IMG/VR virus record: IMGVR_UViG_3300045988_077292
Location: 1 to 38,533 of that record
DNA length: 38,533 nucleotides
Origin: a virus
Strand: one strand, 5' to 3'
The notes beneath the pieces were generated by a model. The model saw nothing but the letters and a program-made list of their open reading frames with translations, had not been told where the DNA came from and ran no database searches. Below, in pieces: positions 14,353 through 38,533 of this stretch; position 1 is the first letter of the stretch, and each line of letters starts with the position of its first letter. The position numbers were made by a program, and so were the translations under genes.

Positions 14353-14387
14353 AAAAGTGCCCAGACGGGCACGGAAGGAGAAAAATT

Positions 14388-17815: not shown

Positions 17816-19408
17816 TTATTTTCTTGGAACACAAAAGCAAAGCAAACTCTGTGTTATAAGAATTCTTGGTGCCGGTGACCCTACACCGTCAATTCTTATA
17901 ACTGTCTCGGAATCATCTGAGAAATCAAAGTCGCCACGGGGCGTGGGGTCAAGCAATGTCCACACTTTTATAAAGTCGGCATGGACTTCCACGCGGACAA
18001 CTATACTCAAAAGCAAATCATCGGTCTCTGGGGACCGGGCAAACATATTGAGAATTTCCCGCAGTTTATCTTCGGAGACTGACGCCCCGGAGACTTGGGC
18101 TTTAAGCTGGAGCATATCATGTTCCAGCTTTGCTTTTTCTGCTTCCAGCTCGGTGAGCTTGGCGGAGAGAGCGGGACTGTTCAGCCCGGACAACACAGCG
18201 TCAACGGCGGCAGCAATGCGCTTGTCAACTGCGCTGCGGCGGGTCACGAGCTGCTGCAGCTTTTCCCCGGCGCTGCCTTGAAGCTTGCTGCGCTCATCAC
18301 GCAGAATAGCCAAAAGATATTCGACATTGGCGGGAAGGCAAAACAGCTCGCGCATAGTGTCAAGCACGCGCACCTCCAAGTCGTCTACACGAATCGGCAT
18401 ACAATCACACTTGCCCTTGCGCTGCTTGGCGGAGCAAGCATAGTAATAGTACTTCCCTTTTGCCTTGGACACGACCATCGCACTTTTGCATTCTCCGCAG
18501 AACACTTTACCCTTGAGCGGGTAGCTGCGCACGACGGGCGCGCGCCCGGCTTGACTTCGTTTGTTCTCTTGCAGCTTGCGTTGCACACGCTCCCATGTAC
18601 ATCTATCTATGATGGCGGGTACGGCGTCCTCAACACGAATGACAGAGGACGCGGAAGCGTGAGAGTTGCGGCTTCCGTCCGGTCGCTTCTCGACTTTACC
18701 ATAGGTGAGAACACCGATATACTTTTCATTCTTGAGTAAGTCATGCAGAGAGTTTGTGCCGAAGGAGTTGCCGGACTTCGTGGTATACCCAGCTTCGTTG
18801 AGCGCGCGGATGATCTCTCTGTACGTCTTGCCCGATGCATACCACTTGAAAATACTGCGGACTATTTCAGCTTCAGCCTCGCACACGACGTAGCGCCCGT
18901 CGACCACGTTATAGCCCAGCGGGGGCTTGCCGCCTGTATGTCTCCCCTGCTGTGCCAGGAAGCGCATCTTCTCCGTGACCTTCTGCCGTGTCTGCAAAAC
19001 CCAGATCTGATTGAAGAGTGCCATGCTCCCCTCGGTCAAGAAGTTTGTGGGGTCGCGCAGGTCTCCGCCAACCATAGGCTGAGTGACGGAGACAACACGC
19101 ACACCAAGGCGCTCGACCTTTTCGCGGAAGTCAAACCACGCCGTCATCTTGCGAAACATACGGGACTGATCATAGATGACCACGGTGTCCGCACTGCCGA
19201 GAGAGAGCTGCCGCATCATGCGGCTGTATTCGGGGCGGTCATCCTTCATTCCGGAAACGGCCATGTCAGCAAACACATCAAGAACTGGCAAGCCGTTAGC
19301 GTCACACCAACGAGAGCATTTCACAACTTGAACTTCTATGCTGTCCTCATCCTGCCGGTCGGTACTATAACGCGCGAGTATGTACGCGCCATGATGAAGC
19401 GTGGTCAT
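17816..19408 (-). CDS. int: Large serine recombinase (integrase), 530 aa from ATG 19408
   Basis: YILARYSTDRQ is the catalytic Ser motif. A resolvase-like N-terminus is followed by a recombinase domain, a zinc ribbon (CGECKSAM...YYYACSAK...KCDC) and a C-terminal coiled coil. ATGA overlap with the upstream gene at 19405-19408. Confidence 0.9.
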   Translation of the reverse strand: MTTLHHGAYILARYSTDRQDEDSIEVQVVKCSRWCDANGLPVLDVFADMAVSGMKDDRPEYSRMMRQLSLGSADTVVIYDQSRMFRKMTAWFDFREKVERLGVRVVSVTQPMVGGDLRDPTNFLTEGSMALFNQIWVLQTRQKVTEKMRFLAQQGRHTGGKPPLGYNVVDGRYVVCEAEAEIVRSIFKWYASGKTYREIIRALNEAGYTTKSGNSFGTNSLHDLLKNEKYIGVLTYGKVEKRPDGSRNSHASASSVIRVEDAVPAIIDRCTWERVQRKLQENKRSQAGRAPVVRSYPLKGKVFCGECKSAMVVSKAKGKYYYYACSAKQRKGKCDCMPIRVDDLEVRVLDTMRELFCLPANVEYLLAILRDERSKLQGSAGEKLQQLVTRRSAVDKRIAAAVDAVLSGLNSPALSAKLTELEAEKAKLEHDMLQLKAQVSGASVSEDKLREILNMFARSPETDDLLLSIVVRVEVHADFIKVWTLLDPTPRGDFDFSDDSETVIRIDGVGSPAPRILITQSLLCFCVPRK

Positions 19409-19887
19409 CCCAGCCACCACGGGAGCGCGCACATGATGGCGGCGCGAGTGCTCACGCCGTAGTGCGTCTGCTCAATGATGGAGCGGCGGATCCATCCCAC
19501 ATTGGGGTTCAGCAGGTCAATAATAAAAAAGATGAGCACAAAGAAAACAAAGGTAACAAGCCCGGCAATGATACGCCCGTACAGCTCCGCGCGATGCCGG
19601 TCACGCCGCGCCTCTGCTTTCAGCTGCACAACAAGCGGGTCATTCGGCACGGTCACAGGCGGCGCGTCGCGGTGAGAGGCGCCGAGAATATCATCCACGC
19701 TGCCGCCGCAGACATTGATAATGTCGCACAGCAGAAAGAAAGATGGATTCTTCGGTTCCTCGCTGAGCACGCGCCGGACTGTCATGCCGGAGACCTCACA
19801 GCGCTTGGCAAGCTCATCGTAGCTCAGCCCGCTGGCAGAAACAAGCGCACGTATTCTCTCCATAACGGTCTCTTCCTTTTGCGTCAT
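19405..19887 (-). CDS. Membrane-anchored XRE-family HTH protein (160 aa), first gene of the integrase operon
   Basis: GGAGGAGGA RBS before ATG 19887. HTH SGLSYDELAKRCEVSGMTVRRVL, and C-terminal TM IIAGLVTFVFFVLIFFIIDLL. Confidence 0.7.
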   Translation of the reverse strand: MTQKEETVMERIRALVSASGLSYDELAKRCEVSGMTVRRVLSEEPKNPSFFLLCDIINVCGGSVDDILGASHRDAPPVTVPNDPLVVQLKAEARRDRHRAELYGRIIAGLVTFVFFVLIFFIIDLLNPNVGWIRRSIIEQTHYGVSTRAAIMCALPWWLG

Positions 19888-19930
19888 TTTATCCTCCTCC
19901 ATTCGTTTTTTAGATATAAAGATCCCGCCC

Positions 19931-19981
19931 ACAAAACTGTGCGGTAAAATTACAAAAGTGAGAGTTGTTTTCACAAAAGTG
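19931..19981. promoter_or_regulatory. Three ACAAAA(C/G)TG repeats phased at exactly 21 bp (19931, 19952, 19973): operator-like iterons
   Basis: Read directly in the divergent intergenic region between the integrase operon and the small + strand unit. Confidence 0.5.
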
Positions 19982-20076
19982 TAGGGTTATGCTGTGAACA
20001 AGTAAGAATGCTGTCGTTCATCAACTGTTCACAATATACACCAACAAGAAATATATGTCAAGGAGGAACTGAGAAA

Positions 20077-20199
20077 ATGTACCGATTGGATTGTAAGCTG
20101 GGCAGTATGCTGCCGTGCCGGTGCTGCTGCCGTCATTGGTGCTGCCCGGGATTTATGTGGAGACGAGGACGAAGCGGGCGGCGGACGCTGCCGCAGTGA
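20077..20199 (+). CDS. Possible 40-aa Cys/Arg-rich peptide (MYRLDCKLGSMLPCRCCCRHWCCPGFMWRRGRSGRRTLPQ)
   Basis: AAGGAGG at 20060-20066 sits 10 nt before the ATG. The composition is odd, so this may be non-coding. Confidence 0.3.
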   Translation: MYRLDCKLGSMLPCRCCCRHWCCPGFMWRRGRSGRRTLPQ

Positions 20200-20211
20200 G
20201 AGGAGAAAAGA

Positions 20212-20301
20212 ATGAGGCAACTGATAGAGGCGAAGCTGAACGAGGCAACCGAGGAACAACTGAGATACATACTGCTCATGCTGGACAACATGATAAAGTA
20301 G
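20212..20301 (+). CDS. Possible 29-aa helical peptide (MRQLIEAKLNEATEEQLRYILLMLDNMIK)
   Basis: AGGAG sits 6 nt before ATG 20212, and a strong terminator follows immediately. Confidence 0.35.
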   Translation: MRQLIEAKLNEATEEQLRYILLMLDNMIK

Positions 20302-20318
20302 AGCGGGAGAAAAGAGAG

Positions 20319-20355
20319 CCGCCCGGCGCATTAAGCGTCGGGCGGTTTTTTGTTT
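20319..20355 (+). terminator. Strong rho-independent terminator (overlaps the 3' end of the convergent repressor gene)
   Basis: CCGCCCGGCGC attaa GCGTCGGGCGG (11 bp with one G-U pair) followed by TTTTTTGTTTG. Confidence 0.8.
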
Positions 20356-20735
20356 GTATCAGTAGGGAGCTTTTGAAGAAGCTCTAGGAGTTTATCCCAC
20401 TGTTCAACATCTGTGTTACACATAAAATCAATGAGTTTCATTTCAAGCTCATTACCTTTGCCGCTGAGAAGCTTGGTCATGTAGGCAGTTATCTCAGCAG
20501 AGCGGGCAGCGTCCGGATCAAATGTTCCTGCACCATCGCGCAGCCAATCCTCATCAGCTTTGAACTCCCGGCAGATAGAACGAATGGCAACTTCGGACGG
20601 AACACGGACGCCGGATTCCCAAGTCGCAACCGTATTCTGCTTTACGCCAATGCGCTGCCCAAATTCGGCTTGAGAAATATGATGAGCTTTCCGCAAAGAT
20701 TTTATTCGCGCGCCGATTGAATCGACAACAATCAT
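20331..20735 (-). CDS. XRE-family repressor paralog 1 (134 aa)
   Basis: HTH ISQAEFGQRIGVKQNTVATWESG. The C-terminal domain ITAYMTKLLSG..ELEMKLIDFM..DVEQWDKLLEL is shared with the neighbouring gene. Confidence 0.8.
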   Translation of the reverse strand: MIVVDSIGARIKSLRKAHHISQAEFGQRIGVKQNTVATWESGVRVPSEVAIRSICREFKADEDWLRDGAGTFDPDAARSAEITAYMTKLLSGKGNELEMKLIDFMCNTDVEQWDKLLELLQKLPTDTNKKPPDA

Positions 20736-20774
20736 CCCCTTTCAAAATAAATACATCGCCAAGTGATTTTTATA

Positions 20775-20803
20775 TTGACAAACACGAGCTGAAATAATAT
20801 AAT
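20775..20803 (+). promoter_or_regulatory. Perfect consensus sigma-A promoter TTGACA-17-TATAAT, pointing antisense into repressor paralog 2
   Basis: TTGACA at 20775-20780, a 17-nt spacer, TATAAT at 20798-20803. It is flanked by the 9-bp inverted repeat TATATTGAC / GTCAATATA (20771-20779 and 20810-20818). Confidence 0.6.
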
Positions 20804-20831
20804 CACATCGTCAATATAAATATCACAATGT

Positions 20832-21236
20832 CTATTTATTCGGCGGTTTTTCTATTTCGGATATGTTCTTCGCGAGCGGGCGGATGAGTTCGAGGAGCTT
20901 GTCCCACTGGTCAACATCTGTCGCCGCCATGAAGTCTATGAGCTTCTCCTCCAGCTCGGAGCGCTCGCCGGAGAGGAGCTTGCCCATGTAAGCGGCGATC
21001 GCGTCCTTGCGCGAAAGCTCCTTGAACATGGGACCGCCCTCATCGCCGTGCCGCAGCCACAGCTCATTGACACCAAACTCACGGCAGATGTCTGAAATGG
21101 TGCGCTCACTGGGAGTACCGCCACTGACAAGTTTAGATACATACTGCTGAGAGACGTTTATTCTTTTTGCAAAGGCAGTCTTTGTAAGACCTGATTTATC
21201 AACTACCTCGCCTATGCGTTCGTTGATGGTGCTCAT
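20832..21236 (-). CDS. XRE-family repressor paralog 2 (134 aa from ATG 21236)
   Basis: RBS AAGGGGGTG. HTH LTKTAFAKRINVSQQYVSKLVSG. The C-terminus IAAYMGKLLSG..ELEEKLIDFM..DVDQWDKLLEL is paralogous to 20331-20735. Confidence 0.8.
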   Translation of the reverse strand: MSTINERIGEVVDKSGLTKTAFAKRINVSQQYVSKLVSGGTPSERTISDICREFGVNELWLRHGDEGGPMFKELSRKDAIAAYMGKLLSGERSELEEKLIDFMAATDVDQWDKLLELIRPLAKNISEIEKPPNK

Positions 21237-21258
21237 TCTAATCACCCCCTTTGTGCTG

Positions 21259-21287
21259 ACTATATCATGAGGAAAAAACTTTGTCAA
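21259..21287 (-). promoter_or_regulatory. Repressor (lysogenic) promoter TTGACA-17-TGaTATAGT on the minus strand
   Basis: The reverse complement of 21282-21287 is TTGACA, and of 21259-21264 is TATAGT with an upstream TG. It sits about 20 nt upstream of the repressor RBS. Confidence 0.65.
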
Positions 21288-21318
21288 GAAAAAACACAAC
21301 TAAGTGGTGAAAAAATGC

Positions 21319-21347
21319 TTGACAACGAAACTCACGCGTGGTAATAT
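21319..21347 (+). promoter_or_regulatory. Divergent early (lytic) promoter TTGACA-17-TGgTAATAT
   Basis: TTGACA at 21319-21324, a 17-nt spacer ending in TGG, TAATAT at 21342-21347. It is back-to-back with the repressor promoter. Confidence 0.65.
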
Positions 21348-21392
21348 ACAACCAAGGCGTAACAAAATAATACTCAGTAAGGAGTAAAGACA

Positions 21393-21548
21393 ATGAATTT
21401 TGAAGAGCTTGTAAAACTCGTTGTAGGCAACAAACATCTGAGAAGTAGGTGGGACGTTGTAAGTTACCTAATCGGATATAAAAAGATGATAGACGAAACA
21501 GACTGGGAACACATCGAACAAATGTATGTGGATGGTCTCATAGAGTGA
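21393..21548 (+). CDS. Small early protein (51 aa), first ORF after the early promoter
   Basis: TAAGGAG RBS 8 nt before ATG 21393. Its stop abuts the stop of the convergent membrane-protein gene. Confidence 0.45.
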   Translation: MNFEELVKLVVGNKHLRSRWDVVSYLIGYKKMIDETDWEHIEQMYVDGLIE

Positions 21549-22358
21549 TTAGTCATAATCACCGGATGAATAGAAAAGTATCTGAGAGATACCGTGCAGA
21601 CCGTCAGCAAGAAGAGAGTAGAGTTCATCAAAGTCAAGAGCCGCGCCGGTCTCCATACAAGCTTCAAGTAGTTCTTTTCCCTCACGAATGGTATTTAGAT
21701 ATTCATCTATATCCGATAGAAACTCACCCCGATTCCATTCAAAGTCATCTGAGCTATCGACCAGTCCACGCCTAAAACCAGCGCTGTACCCAACGCGGAA
21801 TGAATCGCTCGCTATATCAATGTCTTCACTGGAAAGTTCTAATGCCGGAAACATTTTACCACGCTGATATTCAATCCCCGCGTAAAAGCCAAAGTCAAAG
21901 CCAGAAGAATAGCCATCGGTATATGACAAATGTTCGCGATATTCCATATCGTCATCTGTGTACAAGCCATCATCTAAGGCTGCTTCGTATCCTTCGTTGC
22001 GTGCAGCGGATCTGATTTCACTGATTTCGTCGGCGGTATAGAACAGCTTACCATTAAAAAAACAGATAAACATGGAGAGCGCAAGCAGAACCAGAGAGAC
22101 AGCGAAGATAGATTCAGCTGGATTTTCTTCCGAGTTCTCAGTGTCGCAAAGGCTGTGGCTTACAATCAATGCGAGGACAGAAGTGACACCTAAAGAAAGA
22201 CCAATGATAATTTTAGAAGACACGTCGAAGTGAGACAATACAGCGTTATTGAGGCTAAAGGCACCACCAAAAATGAGAATGTAGAGGAGAATAAACGACC
22301 AACCTTTTGCGAATGCAAACGCAATGTGAATAAAGAATGCAGATAGTTTTTCTTTCAT
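21549..22358 (-). CDS. Multi-pass membrane protein with an acidic cytoplasmic domain carrying GYxxGFxxG repeats (269 aa from ATG 22358); prophage moron, candidate exclusion/abortive-infection factor
   Basis: About 4 hydrophobic helices in the N-terminal 115 aa. The C-terminus has GYEAALDDG, GYSSGFDFG and GYSAGFRRG. The region is visibly AT-rich compared with the rest of the genome. It has the same orientation as the repressors. Confidence 0.7.
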   Translation of the reverse strand: MKEKLSAFFIHIAFAFAKGWSFILLYILIFGGAFSLNNAVLSHFDVSSKIIIGLSLGVTSVLALIVSHSLCDTENSEENPAESIFAVSLVLLALSMFICFFNGKLFYTADEISEIRSAARNEGYEAALDDGLYTDDDMEYREHLSYTDGYSSGFDFGFYAGIEYQRGKMFPALELSSEDIDIASDSFRVGYSAGFRRGLVDSSDDFEWNRGEFLSDIDEYLNTIREGKELLEACMETGAALDFDELYSLLADGLHGISQILFYSSGDYD

Positions 22359-22402
22359 AGCGAAAAATCCTTTCAAAAAATGTAATGGAGGCGAGCGGGA
22401 TG
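22356..22402. repeat. Bidirectional leader cassette copy 1: CATAGCGAAAAATCCTTTCaAAAAATGTAATGGAGGCGAGCGGGATG
   Basis: The left end is the reverse-complement ATG plus leader of the minus-strand gene. The right end is GGAGG-8 nt-ATG of the + strand gene. It recurs at 23001-23046. Confidence 0.85.
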
Positions 22403-22831
22403 AAATTTAATTATGAGCGTTTGAGCAAAAAGATTAAAGAAAAATATCGAGCGCAAGATGCGTTCGCGAAAGTGATTGGGATAACACGCACATCGCTATC
22501 CTACAAGCTAAACGGGAAAAGCTCTTGGCACGCGGATGAGATGTACAAGGTATGCAAAGCGCTCGACATACCGCTGAAAGAAATCCCACGGTATTTTTTT
22601 GAGCCCAAAGGCTCAGTGGCAGAGGCGCAAAGCGCGAGGATGCGAGAACTGAGCAGAGGAGAAGCAGCCGCAGCGGCGCTGACGATGCTGCTGGGTTACA
22701 CGAGGGACATCAACCAGAGGCGCAGACTTGAGTACGGCGACAGCGGGGACGCGGTGCTGGCGTTCAATGAAGAAGCGCTGGAGGAAGCGCTGCGCTGCGT
22801 GGAACTGGTCAACGATTCCGAATGCTATTGA
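22400..22831 (+). CDS. XRE-family HTH early regulator (Cro/antirepressor-like, 143 aa from ATG 22400)
   Basis: GGAGG sits 8 nt before ATG 22400. HTH AQDAFAKVIGITRTSLSYKLNGKSSW. Confidence 0.7.
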   Translation: MKFNYERLSKKIKEKYRAQDAFAKVIGITRTSLSYKLNGKSSWHADEMYKVCKALDIPLKEIPRYFFEPKGSVAEAQSARMRELSRGEAAAAALTMLLGYTRDINQRRRLEYGDSGDAVLAFNEEALEEALRCVELVNDSECY

Positions 22832-23003
22832 AAATCTCGAAAGCCCTGTTCCGGCAGACTGTGGTGCATTCTTTATAGCATGGTTGATAAGTATCACACC
22901 CAGCAAAAGCATAGCGATCATCCAGCGGATAAGGCAATAGGTAGACATCAACGTGATTGAAATGAACAGGGCAGAGCACGTTTATAGTGACGGTCTTTTT
23001 CAT
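22809..23003 (-). CDS. Small 4-5 Cys protein B (64 aa)
   Basis: It starts with the conserved leader GAAAGGATTTTTCGCT-ATG. Its Cys spacing is like that of 23457-23693. The 3' end overlaps the convergent HTH gene by 23 nt. Confidence 0.45.
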   Translation of the reverse strand: MKKTVTINVLCPVHFNHVDVYLLPYPLDDRYAFAGCDTYQPCYKECTTVCRNRAFEIFNSIRNR

Positions 23004-23046
23004 AGCGAAAAATCCTTTCTAAAAATGTAATGGAGGCGAGCGGGTG
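23001..23046. repeat. Bidirectional leader cassette copy 2 (1 mismatch and a 1-nt deletion that converts the ATG to GTG)
   Basis: catagcgaaaaatcctttctaaaaatgtaatggaggcgagcgggtg, read directly and compared with copy 1. Confidence 0.85.
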
Positions 23047-23227
23047 TTTGCACTGGAAAAGAAGCAACTGTACATAGTGCAAGAGCCATTGAGGAAAAAT
23101 CGCAGTTGCCAAAGCTATAGGTGGAAACAGGTTCTTCTTTGCGAAGATAAGCAACCACTTATCGAGATACTTAATGCGCAGAGCAGCCCTAGAGATTGGC
23201 GGGTTATCCCACTCGGGGACAGCGCAG

Positions 23228-23245
23228 ATGGAGGCGAGCGGGATG
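23228..23245 (+). repeat. Right-half leader copy (ATGGAGGCGAGCGGGATG) in front of gene 23243
   Basis: 18-nt identity with the right halves of copies 1 and 2. Confidence 0.8.
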
Positions 23246-23476
23246 GAAGTAATACAGATCAGTGCAGCGCAGAGAACAGCGCTGCAAGCAGCGCGAAGCA
23301 ATGAGCAACCGCGCCCAATGTCAAGCATGGCAGAGACAGTGCTGAATGCGACGAACGTGTGGAACTGGCTGCACAAGGACAGAGAGACGCCGCCGAGTGT
23401 GCTTAAAGCATTCGACGATATATGCGAGCAGCTGAACGTGCCGTATGTGATAGACGTCACCACGGTGGAGAGTTGA
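23243..23476 (+). CDS. Small early protein with a degenerate XRE-like HTH (77 aa)
   Basis: GGAGG-8 nt-ATG identical to the 22400 start. AETVLNATNVWNWLHKDRETPPSVLKAFDDICEQLNVP resembles the recognition-helix half of XRE domains. Confidence 0.55.
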   Translation: MEVIQISAAQRTALQAARSNEQPRPMSSMAETVLNATNVWNWLHKDRETPPSVLKAFDDICEQLNVPYVIDVTTVES

Positions 23477-27868: not shown

Positions 27869-28669
27869 ATGAGACGACTGATGGAATACAAGATAGTATC
27901 GGGGAATGTTGTGGAGATCAGACGGACATACATGAATGTCCGTGCTGGGTCTCCACAGAGGAAGCCGCGCGGCCAGCGCATAGCCGGGAACACCTCCGCC
28001 AGAAAGATAAAGGCGAATGAGAATGAAGCCGTGAAGCAGCTGGCGCGCACGCTCAATGCCAACCTCAAGAAGGGATGGCTGTGGGTCACGCTGAAATATG
28101 AGAACGAATATCTGCCCGTGGATTACTCCGCCCTTGAACAGAATGGGGGCAAGTTCACACGGGCTCTTCGTGCTGCATTCAAGAAAGAGAACGGGCGTAA
28201 CCCTCAGTACATCTGGGTGAATGCCAACTGGTCGCCGGAGCGGGACGCGCCCGCAAGGCTGCACCATCATCTCGTGATAGAGGCGTGCAGTCTGGATATG
28301 CTGGCGGAGCTGTGGAAGTATGGCAGCGTGTCCGTGGAAGAGATCGACGGACGCGAAGACCACACGGCGCTGGCGGTGTACATAGTGAAGAACGTGCACG
28401 GGCTTGAGCGCGGGAAGAACAAGTGGAGCACGAGCCGGGGCAATCTGCTGAAACCCATATACACAGAGCCGGAGGAAGTGACAGACGGTGGAGTGGAAGA
28501 CATAGCCGTGCTGCCGACAGCGAGACAGACAGCGTTTGAAAGGCTGGACGATGAGTGTGGGCGAGCCGTGAGCGCATACGTGCGGTGCATACTGCCGGAG
28601 AGACCAAAGGTCAGAGGCGGGCAGATAATAATACAGCGCCCGAAGAAACGCGGAGGAAGGAGAAGCTGA
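27869..28669 (+). CDS. HUH-superfamily rolling-circle replication initiator-like protein (266 aa)
   Basis: Three motifs in canonical order and spacing: WVTLKY (aa 72-77, motif I), RLHHHLVIE (aa 130-138, HUH), AVYIVKN (Y171-x2-K174, motif III). Confidence 0.6.
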   Translation: MRRLMEYKIVSGNVVEIRRTYMNVRAGSPQRKPRGQRIAGNTSARKIKANENEAVKQLARTLNANLKKGWLWVTLKYENEYLPVDYSALEQNGGKFTRALRAAFKKENGRNPQYIWVNANWSPERDAPARLHHHLVIEACSLDMLAELWKYGSVSVEEIDGREDHTALAVYIVKNVHGLERGKNKWSTSRGNLLKPIYTEPEEVTDGGVEDIAVLPTARQTAFERLDDECGRAVSAYVRCILPERPKVRGGQIIIQRPKKRGGRRS

Positions 28670-29347: not shown

Positions 29348-29641
29348 ATGAGCGGGATGAGGAGCACGGCACAGCGCTTGCAGATGGCACTCGTGATGAG
29401 CGGGTGCAACGTAAGCCTAAACAGCAGACAGTTTTACAGCACGAAGTATCAGAAGATCGTGACCTGCTGGAAGATACACGAGGACAACAAGCTCGTACTG
29501 AAAACCTATTCGAGCGTCGCCGTGGTGCAGACGCTAGCGGAAATGTACAAGGAGGTGCGTGATGAAGAAGCTGCCGCCAAAGAAAATGAAATTCGCGGAG
29601 GCGTACATCCGGCTAAACAACCAGACACAGGCGGCGATTGA
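29348..29641 (+). CDS. Hypothetical protein preceding terS (97 aa; the 3' 80 nt overlap terS)
   Basis: GCAAGGAGGCGGACACC ATG. The long overlap makes the true C-terminus uncertain. Confidence 0.45.
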   Translation: MSGMRSTAQRLQMALVMSGCNVSLNSRQFYSTKYQKIVTCWKIHEDNKLVLKTYSSVAVVQTLAEMYKEVRDEEAAAKENEIRGGVHPAKQPDTGGD

Positions 29642-29960
29642 GGCGGGGTACTCCCCTGCCAGCGCACGCACAGCCGGGTATAGGCTGCTGCAAAAAGATG
29701 ATGTGCAGGAGTACATACGCGAGCGCCTGCGCGAGATAGACGAGCAAGAGATAGCCAAGACCAACGAGGTACTGCGCTTTCTGTCAAGCGTCATGCGCGG
29801 AGAAGTGCAGGACCAGTTCGGGCTTGACGCACAGCTGGCGGACAGGATAAAGGCAGGGACGGAGCTGCTGAAAAGATACGCCTCGGTCGAGGCGGAGGAA
29901 AAAGGCGCGGAGGCTGTCACCATTGAGTTCGTCGCGCGGACGGAGGAGGCGGCGCAGTGA
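29562..29960 (+). CDS. terS: Terminase small subunit (132 aa from ATG 29562)
   Basis: KFAEAYIRLNNQTQAAIEAGYSPASARTAGYRLLQKDDVQEYI is the typical Terminase_2-type HTH N-terminus. AAGGAGG sits 6 nt upstream. Confidence 0.85.
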   Translation: MKKLPPKKMKFAEAYIRLNNQTQAAIEAGYSPASARTAGYRLLQKDDVQEYIRERLREIDEQEIAKTNEVLRFLSSVMRGEVQDQFGLDAQLADRIKAGTELLKRYASVEAEEKGAEAVTIEFVARTEEAAQ

Positions 29961-31390
29961 AGCGACTGGAGATACCGGAGCCAAGCGCAAAGCAATGGCT
30001 GTTCCTGCGGGACCGGCACAAGTACGTATGCTACGGCGGGGCGCGCGGCGGCGGGAAGAGCTGGGGCGTGAGGGTCAAGGCGATACTGCTGTGCGAGAAC
30101 TACGCCGGCATAAAGGTGATGATCGTGCGCCGGAGTTACCCGGAGCTGTACGCCAACCACATAAAGCCGCTGACAGAAATGCTGCGGTGCGACAGCGAGA
30201 ACGACGCGCTGGCAAGGTACAACGACCAGCGCAAGGAGATGGCATTCCCCAACGGCAGCAGAATCATTTTCAGATGCTGCGAGCGGGAGCGGGACGCGGA
30301 CAGATTCCAGGGCACAGAAGTGGACGTGCTGTTCGTGGACGAGGCGACGCACCAGACCGAGAGCGTGATGGCAAAGCTGACGGCGTGCGTGCGAGGAGTA
30401 AACGATTTTCCCAAGCGGGTGTATTACACCTGCAACCCCGGCAACGTGGGGCACGAGTGGGTGAAGCGCCTGTTCATTGATCGGCATTACAAAGACGGCG
30501 AGACCCCGGAGGACTACAGCTTCATCCAAGCCGGTGTGCGGGACAACGTGGCGCTGATGAAAGCACAGCCGGACTACATCAAGCAGCTGGAAGCGCTGCC
30601 AGCGAAGCAGAGGGCGGCATGGCTGGACGGAGACTGGGACGTATTCGAGGGCGCATTCTTCGATGACTTCCGTGTGACGCCGGACATCAAGGCGGCGAGA
30701 GACGCAGGGTGCGATCTGTCCCCGGAGGAGATGAGACGGCAGCACAAGTGGGTGCACGTCATCCCGGCATTCGACCTCAACGCCGGGGCAAGCCGGGGCT
30801 GGAACATCATCCGCAGCTACGACTTCGGCTATGCCAAGCCGTTCTCCTGCGCGTGGTGGGCGGTGGACTATGAGGGTGTGCTGTATCGCATACTCGAATG
30901 GTACGGCTGCACGGACACACCGAACGAGGGCATACGCTACACCCCGGAACAGCAGTTCGCAGAGATAGCACGCATTGAGCGGGAACACCCGTGGCTAAAA
31001 GGAAAGCGCATTGACGGCGTGGCAGACCCAAGCATATGGGACGCGAGCCGAGGAGAGAGCATAGCAGAGACGGCGGCGAAGTACCGAGTGTGGTTTTCTC
31101 CCGGAGACAATCAACGCATACCCGGATGGATGCAGTGCCATTATCGCTTGCAGTTTGACAACGAGGGCTACGCCAGAATGTATGTGTTCGACACGTGCAA
31201 GGCATTCATACGCACGGTGCCGCTGATGCAGCACAGCGTACACAAGCCGGAGGACTTGGACACGACGCAGGAAGACCACGTGTGTGACGAATGGAGATAC
31301 ACCTGCATGTCAAGACCCATTGCCCCGCTGGTCAAGAAAGAGAACGCACACCCGATGATAGACCCGCTGAATATGTTCAGCAAACAATAG
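29957..31390 (+). CDS. terL: Terminase large subunit (477 aa)
   Basis: Walker A GGARGGGKSW, Walker B VLFVDEAT, and a C-terminal nuclease region. GTGA overlap with terS. Confidence 0.9.
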   Translation: MKRLEIPEPSAKQWLFLRDRHKYVCYGGARGGGKSWGVRVKAILLCENYAGIKVMIVRRSYPELYANHIKPLTEMLRCDSENDALARYNDQRKEMAFPNGSRIIFRCCERERDADRFQGTEVDVLFVDEATHQTESVMAKLTACVRGVNDFPKRVYYTCNPGNVGHEWVKRLFIDRHYKDGETPEDYSFIQAGVRDNVALMKAQPDYIKQLEALPAKQRAAWLDGDWDVFEGAFFDDFRVTPDIKAARDAGCDLSPEEMRRQHKWVHVIPAFDLNAGASRGWNIIRSYDFGYAKPFSCAWWAVDYEGVLYRILEWYGCTDTPNEGIRYTPEQQFAEIARIEREHPWLKGKRIDGVADPSIWDASRGESIAETAAKYRVWFSPGDNQRIPGWMQCHYRLQFDNEGYARMYVFDTCKAFIRTVPLMQHSVHKPEDLDTTQEDHVCDEWRYTCMSRPIAPLVKKENAHPMIDPLNMFSKQ

Positions 31391-31405: not shown

Positions 31406-33298
31406 ATGGATGAAACAAGAACGAGTGACATGATGAACACGGCGCCGCTGACACCGGAGCCGGTAATGGCAGACACCACGGTGCTGACACAGACTGCACC
31501 GCCCGTGAACGAGGAGACGCTGCGGAAGTTCAACGATACCTTGCAGAAGTACAAGAGCGGGAAGAACAGCGTGGAGCGCCGCGCCATCGAGGCAGAAAAC
31601 TGGTGGAAGCTGCGCAACCAAGTGGAGATCGAGAAGCAGACCAAGGGACTGACAGGGTACAAAGCCAAGAGCGGGTGGCTGCACAACGTGATAGTTGCCA
31701 AGCACGCCGACGCAACAGAGGCATACCCGGAGCCGAACATACTTGCTCGCGAGCCGGACGATGTGAAGGAGGCGGGTATGCTATCAAAGATAATCCCGGT
31801 GGTGCTGGAAGCCAACCGCTTTGAGGAGGCATACAGCGACGTCGCGTGGCAGAAGCTCAAGACCGGCACGGGGATATACAAGGTCTGGTGGGACGCGAGC
31901 AAGCTCAACGGTCTGGGCGATATAGCAATAGAGCGGGTGGATGTGCTCAATGTGTTCTGGGAGCCGGGCGTGACCGACATACAGAAGAGCAAGTACTTCT
32001 TCCACACGGCGACGGTGGACAACGAGGTGCTGGAAGGAATGTACCCGCAGCTCGTGGGCAAGCTCAAGGCAATGACATTTGTGCCGAACAAATTCAGAAC
32101 GGATGATACTGTCCCCGTGGATAAGAAGAGTGTGGTGATAGACGTATACTACAAGTTGCACCGCGAGGGGAAGACGGAGCTGCATTACTGCAAGTACGTA
32201 GGCGGAGAGATACTGTACAGCAGCGAGAACGCGGGAGAGCCGCTGTATGATCACGGGCTGTACCCCTTTGTGTTCGACACGCTGTTCCCCATTGAGGGAA
32301 GCCCGTGCGGCTATGGGTACATAGACCTGTGCCAGAATGTGCAGACGCAGATAGACCTCATGCAGACGGCGTTCATCAAGAACTCCATGGTGGGCGCGAT
32401 ACCCCGGTACTTCATGCGCATAGACGGCAGCATAAACGAGGATGAATTCCTTGATCTTGACAATCCCATCGTGCACGTGAACGGCAACCTCGGCAAGGAC
32501 AGCATGACCCCGGTGGAATACAAAGCACTGAGCGGGAACTATCTGGACGTGCGCACGAGCATGATAAACGAGCTGAGAGAAACGAGCGGGAACACAGAGG
32601 CATCGAACGGCGTTATCTCTTCCGGCGTGACTGCGGCGTCGGCAATCGCCGCACTGCAGGAGGCGAGCGGCAAGGGCAGCCGTGACAGCAGCCGTTCAAG
32701 CTACCGGGCATACTCGCGCATAGTAAACCTGTGCATTGAGCTGATCCGGCAGTTCTATGATATGCCGAGGCAGTTCCGCATCACGGGACAGCTGGGCGCG
32801 GAGACCTTTGTGCGGTACAGCAATGAAAACATTAAGCCGCGCGAGGAGCAGAGCGGGAACATCATGCTGGTGCGTCTGCCGGAGTTCGACATCAAGGTCA
32901 GCCCGGCGAAGAGATCAAGCTACAGCAGGATAACGCAGAACGAAATGGCGCTGCAATTCTACAACCTTGGATTCTTCAACCCGCAGCAGACGGACCAGGC
33001 GCTGGCGTGCTGCTCCATGATGGACTTTGATAACAAAGACGTGGTGATGCAGATGATCAACTACAACGGGACGATGTACCAGAAGCTCGCGCAGTATCAG
33101 CAGTACGCACTGGCAATGACGCAGAAGTACGAGCCGGACAAGGTGGACGCATTGGCCGCGGCGATCACAGGCAACGCTGCACCGCAGACAGTACGCACGA
33201 GCAGCGAGGAAGTGAAGCTCAGCCCGGACACCGAGGAGGACACGCGAGTGCAGAACACGCGGGCAAAGAGCCAATCGTATTCACAGCCGGAGGGATGA
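31406..33298 (+). CDS. Portal protein (630 aa)
   Basis: Its size and position directly after terL fit. LQKYKSGKNSVERRAIEAENWWKLRN is a motif common at portal N-termini. Confidence 0.8.
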   Translation: MDETRTSDMMNTAPLTPEPVMADTTVLTQTAPPVNEETLRKFNDTLQKYKSGKNSVERRAIEAENWWKLRNQVEIEKQTKGLTGYKAKSGWLHNVIVAKHADATEAYPEPNILAREPDDVKEAGMLSKIIPVVLEANRFEEAYSDVAWQKLKTGTGIYKVWWDASKLNGLGDIAIERVDVLNVFWEPGVTDIQKSKYFFHTATVDNEVLEGMYPQLVGKLKAMTFVPNKFRTDDTVPVDKKSVVIDVYYKLHREGKTELHYCKYVGGEILYSSENAGEPLYDHGLYPFVFDTLFPIEGSPCGYGYIDLCQNVQTQIDLMQTAFIKNSMVGAIPRYFMRIDGSINEDEFLDLDNPIVHVNGNLGKDSMTPVEYKALSGNYLDVRTSMINELRETSGNTEASNGVISSGVTAASAIAALQEASGKGSRDSSRSSYRAYSRIVNLCIELIRQFYDMPRQFRITGQLGAETFVRYSNENIKPREEQSGNIMLVRLPEFDIKVSPAKRSSYSRITQNEMALQFYNLGFFNPQQTDQALACCSMMDFDNKDVVMQMINYNGTMYQKLAQYQQYALAMTQKYEPDKVDALAAAITGNAAPQTVRTSSEEVKLSPDTEEDTRVQNTRAKSQSYSQPEG

Positions 33299-33301
33299 GC
33301 G

Positions 33302-33613
33302 ATGACCAAGATAACATACGACGCAGAGAACTACACCTTGGAGATGGACGGGCACGCCGGAGCGGGAGCGCCGGGACAGGACATCGTGTGCGCGGCAGAG
33401 ACGATACTCATGCGGGCGCTCGTCGCCGCAGTGATGGATGAACAGTCAAAACTCTGTCCCTCAGTGCGGCAACGGAGCGGGTACGCAAAGGTGCAGTGCG
33501 CCCCCACACCGAGAGCAAAGACAATGTGCAAGGCAATGATGCAGACGATCTTCATGGGATATGAACTGCTCGCCCAGCATTACCCGGAGCACGTCAAGGT
33601 ATACACAGCATAA
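33302..33613 (+). CDS. prp: Prp-like cysteine protease (DUF464 / ribosomal-processing protease family, 103 aa)
   Basis: GHAGAGAPGQDIVCAAETIL matches the GHA...DIVCAA His/Cys dyad signature (H18, C30). The size is typical of the family. Confidence 0.75.
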   Translation: MTKITYDAENYTLEMDGHAGAGAPGQDIVCAAETILMRALVAAVMDEQSKLCPSVRQRSGYAKVQCAPTPRAKTMCKAMMQTIFMGYELLAQHYPEHVKVYTA

Positions 33614-33627
33614 GGAGGAAAAGAAAA

Positions 33628-34668
33628 ATGGCAATGCTCGGAGAAGAGAAAAAGCAGCAGCAGACAGACGCAACAGCAGTCACACAGAACACGAGCGGGA
33701 GCAGCCAGCAGACACAGCAGAGGGAGACCTCGCCCAAGCAGACTGTTACCCCGCAGCAGACCGCCGCGCAGAACACCCAGCCCGCCGTACAGCAGACGAC
33801 CGCACCCCAGCAGACCGTGACGCCGACAGCAGCGCAGACCACGGGCGGGACACGGAGCGCGGCATACGACCGGGCGATGGCGACATTGAAGAAGGCAGAG
33901 AACAACGCGCCTTCGTATTCATCCTCATACGACGATGAGATCAACGAGATATACAACAAGATCACAAACCGGCAGCCGTTCAAGTATGACTACAGCACAG
34001 ACCCGCTGTATGGCCAGTACAAGGAGCAGTACACCCAGCTGGGCAAACAGGCAATGCGCGACAGCATGGGGCAGACGGCGGCACTCACGGGCGGCTACGG
34101 CAACAGCTACGGCAGTGCGGTGGGACAGCAGCAATACGACGCATACCTGCAGCGACTGAACGATGTGCTGCCGGAGCTGTACGGACAGGCATACAACCTC
34201 TACGCCGCGGAGGGCGACGCGCTCAAGGAGCGGTACACTCTTGCGGCAGATCAGCGCAACACAGAGTACAACCAGTTCCGCGACGCACTGTCAGACTTCC
34301 GCTATGATCAGTCGCTCGACCTTGAGAAGGCGCGGCAGCTGGCCGAAGACCTCGGCGCATACGGAGACTTCTCCGGCTACGGGGAGCTGTACGGTGAGGA
34401 CGCGGCGGCGAGGATGGCGAAGACATGGGCGGCGGCAAACCCCATACCGGCATACATCAACGGGCAGATAACCGCGGACGAATACTACCAGATCACCGGC
34501 GAGTACCCCTATGGCTATACGCCTCCCGGCACGGCGGTAAGCAGCGGCGGAGACAGTGGCAGTGGCGGTGGCGGTGGCTGGGACCCCGGTAACCACGCTT
34601 ACGTGAACAGGGAAAACTACTACAGAGTTACTGGCAAAGACCCGTGGGGAATATTCGAGAAGAAATAA
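33628..34668 (+). CDS. Head-module protein of unknown function, Gln/Thr-rich N-terminus (346 aa)
   Basis: AAGGAGGAAAAGAAAA ATG. Core FKYDYSTDPLYGQYKEQYTQLGKQAMRDSMGQTAALTGGYGNSYG looks like a family often seen next to portals in Firmicutes phages. Not verified. Confidence 0.6.
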   Translation: MAMLGEEKKQQQTDATAVTQNTSGSSQQTQQRETSPKQTVTPQQTAAQNTQPAVQQTTAPQQTVTPTAAQTTGGTRSAAYDRAMATLKKAENNAPSYSSSYDDEINEIYNKITNRQPFKYDYSTDPLYGQYKEQYTQLGKQAMRDSMGQTAALTGGYGNSYGSAVGQQQYDAYLQRLNDVLPELYGQAYNLYAAEGDALKERYTLAADQRNTEYNQFRDALSDFRYDQSLDLEKARQLAEDLGAYGDFSGYGELYGEDAAARMAKTWAAANPIPAYINGQITADEYYQITGEYPYGYTPPGTAVSSGGDSGSGGGGGWDPGNHAYVNRENYYRVTGKDPWGIFEKK

Positions 34669-34680
34669 GGAGGCAGTGCA

Positions 34681-37600
34681 GTGTCAACAAGAGCTGAACG
34701 GGAAGAGAACATAGCGCGTGTACGAGAAGAACGGGAAGAGAACATAGCGCGTGCGCGAGGAGAAGAGTATACAGGAAGCAGCGGACAGGGAACGTCCGCT
34801 GCTTCCCGTGGTTCAAGCGGGAGCTCCGCATGGAAAAAAGGCAGCATTCCGAAAGGCTTTGTAAAGAACCCGTTGGCATTCGCTGGTGGGATAAAGCCTG
34901 TCGATACACGCCCCAGCGTGGTGTCAATGGCACGCGCACCTTTCGAGTATGCCGCACAGCAGAGGCAGAAAGAAGCAGAGATACAAGACCTCAACCAGAA
35001 GTATAAGCAAGCATACCTTGACTACAATTCCGCCCGCCGCGCCGTGACAGCCGCGAGCAAGGGCAAGAGCACAGCAAACTATGACGTGGCCAAAAGCAAG
35101 ATGACTGAGGCAAGCAAACTTGTCGACGCATACAAGAAGCGCGTGGAGGAAGCGGGCGGCGCACTGTGGACACCGACAAACTGGCTGGACACTGTGAAGT
35201 GGAGTGCACGAGCGGGACTGACAAGTGCGGACAGCGCGATAGCAAAGGGGCTTGACTGGGCAGTCGGAGGATTCGCAGATGAGCTGCGGACATTGGCCGG
35301 TGTGACGGCAAATGATATAAGCCCTGCGCTTGCCGACAGCGCGGCGAACCTTGCAACAAAAGCGGGACGTTTGATAAACCCGAACTACACCTACGGAGAA
35401 AACAACTTCCTCAAGCAATACGTAGAAGAGGGCAACCGCAGAATCAACGTGCAGCATGAAGAGATGGCGCGCGCGGCGAGCGACAGCAAGGCAGCACAGA
35501 CTGTCGGGAAGTATACCGAGATGATCATGAACTCGCTGCCAATGTCAGCAATGGCGCTGCTGTCGGGCGGCACGACGGCAGCGGCACAGGCAACAACGGA
35601 GGCACTGCAAGCTGCTTCAACGCTTGCGAACAGCAGCAGAGCGGCGCAGATAGTCACACCCATACTCAAGGCAACAACGGACATGGCAAAAGATCCAAAC
35701 TGGGGATTCACATTCATGAGCGTTGTCGGCGACAGCTACGAGAACGCGCTGGCAGATGGAGCGAGTGAGGACCAAGCGTCCCTTTATGCGATACTGAACG
35801 CGGCATACAACGCAACGACAGAGATAGGCGGCTCGGACGAAATGCTGGGCGGCTTACAGAAGCTGCCGAAGAATATCCGCGACGCGCTTGAACGCGCAGA
35901 CAACAGCGTGCTGCTGCAAATAGTAAAGGGAATCCCCTCAGAGATAGGCGAAGAAATTGTACAGGGCATAGGTGAGAGTGGACTAAAGTCTACATACAAA
36001 AATGTACCGGTATACTCTGCCACGGATGAGGGAGCAATGATAAACCCAAGCCGCATGAAAGATGAAGCCCTCGGCGCGGCGGTGGTGTCCGCTGTGCTGG
36101 GCGGCGGACAGTCAGCAATAGGAGCTGGCACGTATGCCATAGAGAACGGCATAGCACAGCGGCAGTACCGAAACAAAGTAGCCCAAACATACGGCGGCTC
36201 GGCGGCTGAACTCGTGGAGAGTGGGCTTGAGAGCGCACCGGGGACAAAGAGCCGGACGCTTGCCGAAGCCTACAAGGCAAAGCTCGACAGCGGGAAGAGC
36301 TTGACGCCGCGAGAGCTGACGAATCTCGTGAAGGCAAACGAGGAAGCAATACGCGCAGAGAGCGCGGCGGAGGCCAGCACCGTGCAGGGAACAGACGACA
36401 CGTCAGAAATGGTCACGAGCCCTGCACAGACGCAGAACGTGACGGAGGAGCGGACACCCGTGCAGACCGCCGCGAGCACGCAGACGGCAGAGAAAGCACC
36501 CACGGGGGTGTACGAGGCAAAGTATAAAGGGCAGACGGGCGACGTGGTGGCATTCGCCAGGCAAGGAGACAGCTTTGCCATGCGGATAAAGATGCCCGAT
36601 GGCACGAGGCGCGACGTAATGGAGAACCAAGTGACGCTCGACCCGGCGACGCGGGAAATGCTGGACACTGTACGCCCGTATGATTACGGCGATGAGATAC
36701 TTACATCATACCGTGCAGCAGAGAATGGGGACAACTTCAAGCTGTTCACACAGGCATTCACCACGGTTGCGGATCTGTACGGCAAGGAGACCACGGTCAC
36801 AGCGGAACAGGCATACGCCGACAGCGTGAAGAACGGCGGCGCTGCAACGGTGCTGACGAGGGAGCAGTTCAACAAGGCGTTCGACATCGGGCGGAGCAGC
36901 CGTGATGCGCGCGTGGTGAACACGGCGGCACGCCAGCGCGGGAGCGGGAACGTGTACTTCAACAAGGTTGTGGACTTCGGCGGAGAGAGATACGCCGCCG
37001 CGACGGAGGACATGGTGAGTGCAGACGAGCTGTCAGTCATCAAGACGATAGCCAAGACGGCGGGCGTGGACGTGGTGTTCTACCAGTCCGAGACGGACAT
37101 GAGCGGGAGGTACGTCGGTGCGAACGGATTTATGCGCAACGGGACAATGTACCTCGATGTGAACGCCGGAGCGACCAGGACGACGGAACAGTCCGCCGTG
37201 CTGCTGACAGCGGCACACGAGCTGACGCACTACATCAGAGAGAACAACGCCGAGGGGTACGCACAGCTCCGCGACTTCGTGACACAGAACCTGATAAAGG
37301 ACGGCGTGAACATTGAGAAGCTGGCAGAGCAGAAGATCGCGCGCGAGGACGGCACACTCTCAATGGATGAGGCGGTTGAGGAGGTCATAGCCGACAGCTG
37401 CGAGACCATGCTGGAGGATACGAAGTTCCCGGAGCTGATGGCAAAAGAAAACCCCGGTCTGTGTGAACAGATCAGGGATTGGTTGGCGGACTTCACAGAG
37501 AAGCTGCGCCGCGCATTCAGCGGAGTAAAGGCAAGGCACGAGGAAGCGCGGGCAATGCTGAACTATGCAGAGGAGCTGCACGAGCTGTGGGACAATGCTC

Positions 37601-38533
37601 TCGTTGCCGCCGTGCGCAACACCGAGGCGGTTTCCGATAACGGCACGGAGGAAAGCGGCCAGACAGGATGGGTGCGCAATTCCAGCAGGGAAAGCAGCAC
37701 AAATACAACAGGTATAAAAGAGCAGATAGAAGAGAATCGTGACAGGCTTAACAGCATGGACGTGGTAGCAGTTGCAACTGTTCCTACAGACCTAGGAAAC
37801 TTCGACGCAGTAACAGCGTGGGCGATGAAGGAATTAAAGCGCACGGGTTATGCGGTAGACAAGCCGGGATTCGGGAGAATAATATTTGATGAGCGGCAGA
37901 TACGGAACGGTGTGAAGTACGCAAAAACGCCAGCAGAGAAAGCGGCGTTTGCTGTTCTTGACAAAGTGCTGAAACGCGGCGTAGAAATAGGCGCGCACGG
38001 CAACCACAAGAACAGGGAGAAAGAAACTGTCACATTCGCAGCGCCAGTTGAGTTGAACAACATACGGGGTAATATGGCGGTTGTGGTAAACAGAAGGGGC
38101 AACACTTACTACGCGCACCGCATTGTACTTCCCGATGGAACGGAGTTTCGATTCACAGAAAAAAAGGATGCAGTACAAGGACCGAAACGGGGAGTTACCC
38201 GAACGGGCTCTCTTGCCGAATCCACAAGTACTACATCCGAGAATAATATACCACAGCCCGTCGAGGAAAGCAATACCAAATATTCCAGGCGAGAGCTGGA
38301 TGAAGATTTGCAGAAGAGGTACCCCCAGCTGAATTTGAACGAAGACATTTCGGAGCTTGACGGTGTACCAGCAATAGAACTGACAGATGGCAGCATTCTC
38401 CCAATAAAGGACAGAGAACGATATAGAACTCATGTATCATTCATAGAAGGGAATCGAATAGATGTAGATGACTTGCGCAGCGGTGGATGGATAGGTAATG
38501 GAGTGTACGATGCATCGTTCACCAGTGACACAG
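34681..38533 (+). CDS. N-terminal 1266 unique codons of the giant 2852-aa polyvalent-type virion protein (runs off the window end, continues at nt 1)
   Basis: AAGGAGG at 34667-34673 sits 7 nt before GTG 34681. I translated every codon to 38533 and found no stop. Hydrophobic segments lie near 35520-35580 and 36060-36130, and HELTH is at 37216-37230. Confidence 0.85.
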   Translation, partial: MSTRAEREENIARVREEREENIARARGEEYTGSSGQGTSAASRGSSGSSAWKKGSIPKGFVKNPLAFAGGIKPVDTRPSVVSMARAPFEYAAQQRQKEAEIQDLNQKYKQAYLDYNSARRAVTAASKGKSTANYDVAKSKMTEASKLVDAYKKRVEEAGGALWTPTNWLDTVKWSARAGLTSADSAIAKGLDWAVGGFADELRTLAGVTANDISPALADSAANLATKAGRLINPNYTYGENNFLKQYVEEGNRRINVQHEEMARAASDSKAAQTVGKYTEMIMNSLPMSAMALLSGGTTAAAQATTEALQAASTLANSSRAAQIVTPILKATTDMAKDPNWGFTFMSVVGDSYENALADGASEDQASLYAILNAAYNATTEIGGSDEMLGGLQKLPKNIRDALERADNSVLLQIVKGIPSEIGEEIVQGIGESGLKSTYKNVPVYSATDEGAMINPSRMKDEALGAAVVSAVLGGGQSAIGAGTYAIENGIAQRQYRNKVAQTYGGSAAELVESGLESAPGTKSRTLAEAYKAKLDSGKSLTPRELTNLVKANEEAIRAESAAEASTVQGTDDTSEMVTSPAQTQNVTEERTPVQTAASTQTAEKAPTGVYEAKYKGQTGDVVAFARQGDSFAMRIKMPDGTRRDVMENQVTLDPATREMLDTVRPYDYGDEILTSYRAAENGDNFKLFTQAFTTVADLYGKETTVTAEQAYADSVKNGGAATVLTREQFNKAFDIGRSSRDARVVNTAARQRGSGNVYFNKVVDFGGERYAAATEDMVSADELSVIKTIAKTAGVDVVFYQSETDMSGRYVGANGFMRNGTMYLDVNAGATRTTEQSAVLLTAAHELTHYIRENNAEGYAQLRDFVTQNLIKDGVNIEKLAEQKIAREDGTLSMDEAVEEVIADSCETMLEDTKFPELMAKENPGLCEQIRDWLADFTEKLRRAFSGVKARHEEARAMLNYAEELHELWDNALVAAVRNTEAVSDNGTEESGQTGWVRNSSRESSTNTTGIKEQIEENRDRLNSMDVVAVATVPTDLGNFDAVTAWAMKELKRTGYAVDKPGFGRIIFDERQIRNGVKYAKTPAEKAAFAVLDKVLKRGVEIGAHGNHKNREKETVTFAAPVELNNIRGNMAVVVNRRGNTYYAHRIVLPDGTEFRFTEKKDAVQGPKRGVTRTGSLAESTSTTSENNIPQPVEESNTKYSRRELDEDLQKRYPQLNLNEDISELDGVPAIELTDGSILPIKDRERYRTHVSFIEGNRIDVDDLRSGGWIGNGVYDASFTSDT
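34696..34761 (+). repeat. 2 x 33-bp tandem duplication inside the giant gene (EREENIARVRE / EREENIARARG)
   Basis: gaacgggaagagaacatagcgcgtg is repeated in phase, with 25 of 33 leading nt identical. Confidence 0.9.
38479..38533. repeat. Terminal overlap copy 2 (identical to 1-55)
   Basis: Exact 55-nt identity with the window start, read directly. Confidence 0.95.

Follow-up and report, generated by a model that had tools for sequence, protein, structure and literature searches.

The window analysed here, that is, the whole 38,533-nucleotide stretch of viral DNA, encodes a small cysteine protease of the Prp family. Judged from sequence comparison, the best explanation for this gene, and quite a probable one, is that an active phage Prp with the catalytic pair His18/Cys30 trims short N-terminal leaders from the scaffold and major capsid proteins at F↓A (arrows mark cut sites). 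The family assignment, originally predicted from a GHA...DIVCAA dyad in a 103-aa ORF and the DUF464/Prp relationship that it implies, is confirmed: the product is a full-length member of PF04327 (MEROPS C108), far beyond chance. The L27-like leaders of the scaffold and capsid proteins, which were absent from the original prediction, constitute the key evidence for the proposed function. The features concerned are collected in Table 1.

Table 1. Positions of the genes and sites discussed, numbered along the window
Feature	Position	Strand	Remarks
Predicted scaffold leader MNSKKYWLQYF	4949-4981	+	11 residues; cut before Ala, codon from 4982
Scaffold-like protein	4949-5962 (mechanical ORF from 4934)	+	phrog_13908
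Predicted capsid leader MNKFKWLQYF	5997-6026	+	10 residues; cut before Ala, codon at 6027
Major capsid protein, N4-gp56 family	5997-7139	+	TIGR04387, 194 bits; phrog_1357
Lysis cassette	13299-14024, 14094-14717	+	NlpC/P60-like, ELLD-domain endolysin with PG_binding_1; Holin_LLH holin
Large serine recombinase	17816-19432	-	Resolvase + Recombinase + Zn_ribbon_recom
HTH/CI-like regulators, several	19405-23463
Small terminase	29559-29960
Large terminase	29957-31390
P22-like portal protein	31406-33298	+	directly 5' of Prp
GGAGGG ribosome-binding site of Prp gene	33289-33294	+	7 nt 5' of Prp ATG; sequence read directly
Prp-family cysteine protease gene	33302-33613	+	ATG to TAA, 103 aa; PF04327 match, dyad, model
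346-aa protein	33628-34668	+	between Prp and giant ORF; no family match
Giant ORF, ~2,850 aa	~34681-38533, then 1-4761	+	runs across assembly junction

The Prp protein and its genomic setting

The Prp protein, whose N-terminal sequence is MTKITYDAENYTLEMDGHAGAGAPGQDIVCAAETIL, matches the Pfam profile PF04327 (Peptidase_Prp) over positions 1-90 of 90 with 49.8 bits (gathering score 27; E=4e-13), and also matches PHROG 4478, annotated as 'peptidase' (2e-14). A PDB sequence search returned Prp proteins only, namely S. mutans SMU.848, S. aureus 4PEO/7KLD/7JVS and S. pneumoniae 2IDL, while a word-indexed homologue search returned 4 proteins. The segment GHAGAGAPGQDIVCAA aligns residue for residue with the catalytic His/Cys segment of the S. 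aureus (4peo/7kld), S. mutans and S. pneumoniae enzymes, with GHA and DIVCA falling on the catalytic His and Cys. Both members of the pair, arranged as GH-x9-D-x2-C, are invariant in close homologues, and G17-H18...D27-I-V-C30 corresponds to G21-H22...D31-I-V-C34 of S. aureus Prp, with the same 12-residue spacing and an equal length of the L2 loop. In the S. aureus enzyme, the roles of the dyad His22/Cys34 and of the Gly and Asp residues that place loop L2 have been described (PMC9405229). When an AlphaFold2 model of the monomer (pLDDT 93.6) was compared with the PDB using Foldseek, all 14 matches with E<=1e-3 were Prp-family structures, with TM values of up to 0.81 (7kld). Profile search and structural comparison therefore agree on the family that had been proposed. 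By analogy with cellular Prp, the phage protein most likely acts as a dimer.

Membership of the family does not extend to orthology with the cellular enzymes. Against the NCBIfam equivalogs of cellular Prp, the best of 11 scores was 37 bits, compared with a cut-off of 171 (range 122-225), and identity to cellular Prps is only about 20-27%. The gene lies between the phage portal and virion genes, not in an rplU-rpmA context, and none of the related loci fetched contained a bL27 gene. Because of the low equivalog scores and this setting, the protein reads as a phage-type relative rather than as a cellular ribosomal-processing (PRK14553) orthologue. A cellular Prp recently taken from the host was considered as an origin and rejected on account of the low NCBIfam scores. 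Since these scores lie far below the cellular cut-offs, the specificity of the phage protein may also differ from that of the characterised enzymes.

The first and last 55 bases of the window (1-55 and 38479-38533) are identical and form a direct terminal repeat, leaving 38,478 unique bases; the window represents a whole phage genome assembled as a circle, in which ORFs that leave one end resume at the other. Upstream of Prp, the stop codon of the portal gene (TGA, 33296-33298) falls between the ribosome-binding site and the start codon of Prp, 3 bases before the ATG, so that the two genes are tightly packed and possibly coupled. The order from portal to Prp is kept in relatives. Downstream, the 346-aa protein combines a long Gln/Thr/Pro-rich N-terminal region with a Tyr/Gly-rich C-terminus and is without the leader motif described below; the related locus L001 has an ORF of ~330 aa at this position, followed by a long ORF that runs off the fetched sequence. 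The C-terminal 1,200 residues of the giant ORF match phrog_22978 (function unknown; E=7e-147). Given that the capsid protein is of the N4-gp56 type, this ORF may encode a packaged or ejected giant virion protein, and giant ORFs are also found in L081, L083 and L087. In the clade to which the window belongs (L001-L004, L081, L083 and probably L155), the 346-aa gene and the giant ORF separate Prp from the scaffold gene. In the window, internal-virion and collagen-like tail-fibre genes lie 3' of the capsid gene.

Searches with Pfam, PHROGs and NCBIfam across the head-module ORFs and most others detected no prohead protease of the HK97/U35, ClpP S14/S49 or T4 U9 type, in line with the original prediction. 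Prp is the only recognisable protease in the head module, and none of the scanned ORFs matched another protease family. No tRNA or Rfam entry was detected in the window. As a separate observation, the plus-strand ORF at 27869-28669 (266 aa) has a borderline match to REP_ORF2-G2P (28.1 bits against a cut-off of 27.8), a rolling-circle initiator type that is unusual in a tailed phage of such size.

The gene content and the relatives of the capsid protein support a temperate gut phage of Clostridia and a Firmicutes-type host. The large serine recombinase and the CI-like repressors mark the phage as temperate and belong to its lysogeny module, and the segment that contains the recombinase and regulators has lower GC (46-49%) and reversed GC skew. 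The endolysin and holin types fit a Gram-positive-type host. Independent support for the host, originally proposed from the restricted distribution of the Prp system, comes from the 80 best relatives of the capsid protein in GTDB genomes, which were retrieved independently of Prp. These are almost all from Oscillospiraceae (Faecousia, Limivicinus, Flemingiibacterium), Acutalibacteraceae, Lachnospiraceae and unclassified Clostridia, as metagenome-assembled genomes (MAGs) from gut samples, with a single record labelled Bacteroidaceae that is probably mis-binned. Several of these capsid-anchored contigs exceed 100 kb, which argues for integrated prophages. The closest phage records are from human faecal samples, and remoter capsid relatives are found in Bacillus and Paenibacillus podophages.

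L27-like leaders on structural proteins

For the scaffold gene, the ATG at 4949 is preferred as the start because GGAGG lies 8 nt upstream and because the homologue in the 94%-related locus L081 begins with MNSKTYWLQYF. Read from this codon, the protein starts MNSKKYWLQYF↓ADGAPAGDG (MNSKTYWLQYF↓ADGAP in L081), and behind the predicted cleavage site lies a Gly-rich stretch of acidic character, which is also seen in scaffold genes beside Prp in other phages. The capsid protein starts MNKFKWLQYF↓ADAGTLVNAT. It matches TIGR04387 well above the cut-off of 60 bits over residues 37-368, with the leader and the first ~36 residues lying outside the model. Homologues share its predicted mature N-terminus, ADAGTLVNATGNYVNA, but their leaders have only hQxF in common. 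The two leaders in the window are near-identical and L27-like, with the common core K.WLQYF↓AD. Both carry Phe at P1, Gln at P3, Leu at P4 and Ala at P1', together with Tyr at P2, Trp at P5 and Tyr or Lys at P6. In the 7KLD complex, S. aureus Prp contacts P1 Phe, P3 Gln, P4 Leu and a small P1' residue, and the bL27 protein of this species starts MLKLNLQFF↓ASKK, an instance of the general Firmicutes bL27 site MLxx(D/N)LQ(F/L)F↓A (PMC9405229). In the staphylococcal phage 80alpha, the scaffold reads ...LKFNLQFF↓ADQS and the capsid protein ...LKLNLQHF↓ASNN, and the site used by host Prp is LNLQ(F/H)F↓A (PMC5744158).

Among the genuine plus-strand genes of the window, the strict site motif [LIVMF]Q[LMYFHI]F[AS] occurs exactly twice, at residue 13 of the scaffold (8 from ATG 4949) and at residue 7 of the capsid protein, which makes these two proteins the obvious candidate substrates of Prp, with statistical support from related loci. 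Internal matches to a looser pattern in the portal, the giant ORF and gene 11706, all without the strict motif, were rejected as chance. The same motif was then counted in 80 IMG/VR loci, many of them incomplete, that were retrieved with the Prp protein of the window. On plus-strand ORFs it was present 96 times within the first 45 residues versus 3 times elsewhere, corresponding to densities of 1.61 (N-termini) and 0.012 (internal) per 1000 residues, a ~136-fold difference; the N-termini of minus-strand ORFs yielded 2 occurrences. At least one carrier was present in 53 of the 80 loci, many of which are incomplete. The carriers are scaffold- and capsid-sized genes just 3' of Prp and tail-tube-like proteins. 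In siphovirus-like loci (many of L011-L058, e.g., L011:4301-4843 and L014:12732-13277), a third carrier of ~175-180 aa, with the site ..LQLF↓AEAVSGKKIIYLY, is probably the major tail protein. Because this tail-tube-like protein carries a leader too, the leader system extends past the head. The motif has also been noted in staphylococcal phage phi13 (PMC5744158).

The loci retrieved through the capsid protein provide a second view of the same arrangement. A Prp gene lies 1-2 kb upstream on the same strand in 56 of the 80, and GH-x9-D-x2-C is kept in all but one of these 56 Prps (55/56). Scaffolds in these loci read W.NLQLF↓AGEG..., and the capsid leaders, which vary in length and sequence, almost all end in hQxF followed by A(D/E)AGTLVNAT. 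Rare variants of the P2-P1 residues are matched between the leaders of scaffold and capsid protein of the same phage, with the pairs YF/YF, RF/RF, HF/HF, MF/MF, YL/YL, LL/LL and FF/FF. Matched pairs other than LF numbered 10 among 69 unique pairs, with 0.68 expected and 0 of 20000 shuffles reaching this number, a figure inflated by shared ancestry; the co-varying variants occur in unrelated capsid types.

Three kinds of relatives are particularly informative. Dorea phage DO134P1 (L086, OP172779.1), which has been isolated and published, shows the same layout, with an unannotated Prp ORF (8001-8252) between annotated genes and leaders on the proteins encoded 3' of it: MANLQLF↓AEGDG on the scaffold, ..LGLQVF↓TAP on the capsid protein and ..QGLQVF↓SES on the tail protein. 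In L085 (MT836159.1, 4778-5788), Prp and scaffold share one reading frame, and the two parts meet at the cleavage motif MMDLQLF↓ADGG. Such a fusion could be a protease-scaffold polyprotein that releases itself, or two nested genes as in lambda C/Nu3; a sequencing error is also possible, since the record is marked UNVERIFIED. In the subclade comprising L087 (MT835607.1), L143, L147, L151, L152, L157, L160 and L163, no Prp was found in the fetched DNA. Here the leader is missing from the scaffold but still present on the capsid protein (KVGFQFF↓ADAGTLVNAT), and in L087 the scaffold gene directly follows the portal gene. It seems that the phage enzyme was lost naturally in this subclade, which perhaps relies on host Prp, and its existence shows that the capsid lineage can do without a phage copy.

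Proposed leader trimming and competing readings

In the proposed mechanism, the protease would be encoded in a conserved portal-Prp-(...)-scaffold-capsid module and, late in infection, would recognise the L27-like leaders of the scaffold and the major capsid protein. Cleavage of the Phe↓Ala bond would remove 11 residues from the scaffold and 10 from the capsid protein. Host Prp processes pre-bL27, as well as the capsid and scaffold proteins of 80alpha, in the same reaction; here the phage would supply the enzyme. We infer that the phage Prp rather than host Prp makes the cuts and that they occur late, whereas viable capsids may or may not need them. The operon-type argument is weaker in this particular genome, as Prp lies ~10 kb upstream of its putative substrates with the giant ORF between them.

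The original prediction went further in suggesting that capsid maturation depends on this enzyme. Such dependence is overstated, considering the subclade without Prp and the precedent of 80alpha. In that phage, both pre-cleaved and uncleavable mutants of the capsid protein are viable, so that capsid cleavage is dispensable, and the scaffold leader is needed for assembly, whereas its cleavage is not (PMC5744158). Since viability of 80alpha does not need cleavage, a strict dependence on Prp may be false here as well.

A rather unlikely alternative is that host Prp cuts the phage leaders, and that the phage copy either boosts or hijacks maturation of host pre-bL27, and with it ribosome assembly, or adds redundant Prp dosage. 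The host almost certainly has a Prp, and the leaders of the window resemble the Firmicutes bL27 consensus (PMC9405229), so the host enzyme could do the trimming, as it suffices to do in 80alpha (PMC5744158). Rare variants such as LQLL are also found in cellular bL27, for example that of C. difficile (PMC9405229), and leaders may thus track the host; moreover, the capsid protein of the Prp-less subclade still has the motif. Against this, Prp is embedded in the head module beside scaffold and capsid genes in the majority of independently retrieved loci (56/80), and in L085 protease and scaffold are joined at the cleavage motif itself. The scaffold of the Prp-less subclade has lost its leader, in keeping with a phage enzyme and a scaffold leader that are functionally linked. 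No ribosome-related functions are indicated in the window.

Two other readings, both concerning the enzyme that does the cutting, are far less probable. One of them, very improbable, holds that the Prp-fold protein is catalytically dead, or structural and chaperone-like, and binds the leaders but leaves them uncut, for example as a means of delaying assembly. It draws on 80alpha, in which a scaffold leader that is required although its cleavage is not implies that leader recognition can outweigh cleavage (PMC5744158). However, the close homologues and 55 of the 56 capsid-anchored relatives all retain the His and the Cys at the same distance from each other, and the Gly and Asp that place loop L2 in S. 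aureus Prp are present in the window Prp as well. The other reading, for which there is hardly any probability, assigns head maturation to a different protease, such as a zincin-like domain around the HELTH sequence of the giant ORF, leaving Prp a minor part. This ORF does contain an HExxH motif (as AAHELTHY) and holds no strict Prp-site motif. Yet Pfam, NCBIfam and PDB sequence searches linked it to no peptidase, and an N4-like virion RNA polymerase gained no support either, the ORF being without any Pfam or PDB sequence match; a bare HExxH is frequent by chance in a protein of ~2,850 residues, and the Prp-type site is the only conserved N-terminal site common to scaffold and capsid protein. 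Trimming of both leaders by an active phage Prp remains the preferred explanation.

Precedents and significance

The classical prohead proteases include HK97 gp4 (U35), ClpP-like S14/S49 enzymes and T4 gp21 (U9), as well as lambda C/Nu3, in which protease and scaffold genes are nested, an arrangement that the in-frame fusion in L085 recalls. They are serine proteases of the assemblin fold that digest a delta domain or the scaffold, whereas the window Prp has an unrelated fold and a cysteine dyad. Many of their genes sit between the portal and the scaffold or capsid genes, as Prp does here. The suggestion that Prp stands in place of such an enzyme therefore holds in part: it is the only protease recognisable in the head module. 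On the other hand, no more than 10-11 residues would be lost at the predicted cut, and the phage has a separate scaffold protein; Prp would accordingly trim leaders, as happens in 80alpha, instead of digesting a scaffold or delta domain in the manner of HK97 or T4.

Two characterised systems come close to the arrangement described here. With S. aureus Prp (MEROPS C108; 4PEO, 7KLD), the phage protein shares the Pfam family, fold, His/Cys dyad and loop length. The predicted substrates are also of the same kind: pre-bL27, the 80alpha capsid protein gp47 and the 80alpha scaffold gp46 carry N-terminal leaders of 10-14 residues with LQxF↓A. In staphylococcal phages, host Prp processes capsid, scaffold and, judging by the motif, tail proteins (PMC5744158). 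The phage gene differs in lying in a head module instead of the host rplU-prp-rpmA operon, its predicted sites differ in having Trp at P5 and Tyr at P2, and the window represents a phage with an N4-gp56-type capsid protein and a P22-like portal, unlike the siphovirus 80alpha.

The other precedent is the protease of Streptococcus phage Cp-1 (orf13; Martin, Lopez and Garcia 1998). As cited in PMC12445089, it is assigned to MEROPS C108 and reported to be essential for maturation and to take 48 residues off the N-terminus of the major head protein. With ~104 aa, it resembles the window protein in size, as well as in being phage-encoded and of the same peptidase family. Cp-1 orf13 aligns with PF04327 over its full length only weakly (E=0.0024, below the Pfam threshold), whereas the window Prp is a clear member; the SOCP homologue of the Cp-1 protease was recovered as a structural match to the model of the window Prp. 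Unlike the window phage, Cp-1 has a cut site that is not L27-leader-like and no evident scaffold leader, and it is a phi29-like phage with protein-primed replication.

These precedents lower the novelty implied by the original prediction, given that C108 already contains the Cp-1 protease and that viral predicted-structure databases label homologues as 'YsxB-like protein' or 'Cysteine protease'. The literature searched, which stopped short of the primary papers (Wall 2015, 2017; Martin 1998), yielded work on 80alpha and host Prp together with reviews, but nothing on PF04327 genes carried by phages whose adjacent structural genes encode L27-like leaders. The finding is thus of modest novelty, a sound and unsurprising extension of the 80alpha and Cp-1 cases that is useful for annotation: even in the isolated phage DO134P1, the Prp ORF is uncalled. 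In practical terms, Prp inhibitors developed as antibiotics would also hit the phage enzymes.

A broader proposal, to be regarded as speculative, is that Prp and L27-like leaders form a widespread protease-propeptide system in phages of Clostridia, one that controls assembly of the head and, in siphoviruses, also of the tail tube, with leaders tuned to the enzyme (here WLQYF) and partly orthogonal to host Prp. If the leaders are tuned in this way, a phage could uncouple the timing of its assembly from ribosome biogenesis in the host, or compete with the maturation of bL27. If such a system exists, natural intermediates of its gain and loss would be seen in the subclade without Prp and in the fusion of Prp to the scaffold.

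For the uncultured temperate phages of gut Oscillospiraceae, the analysis provides a concrete enzyme-substrate pair with cut sites predicted to the residue. The comparison set amounts to a natural experiment: some phages carry a Prp of their own and others related to them lack it, in one case the protease is fused to the scaffold, and site residues co-vary. It bears on a question arising from the work on 80alpha and bL27, namely why Firmicutes, and the phages that mimic them, carry a cleavable leader.
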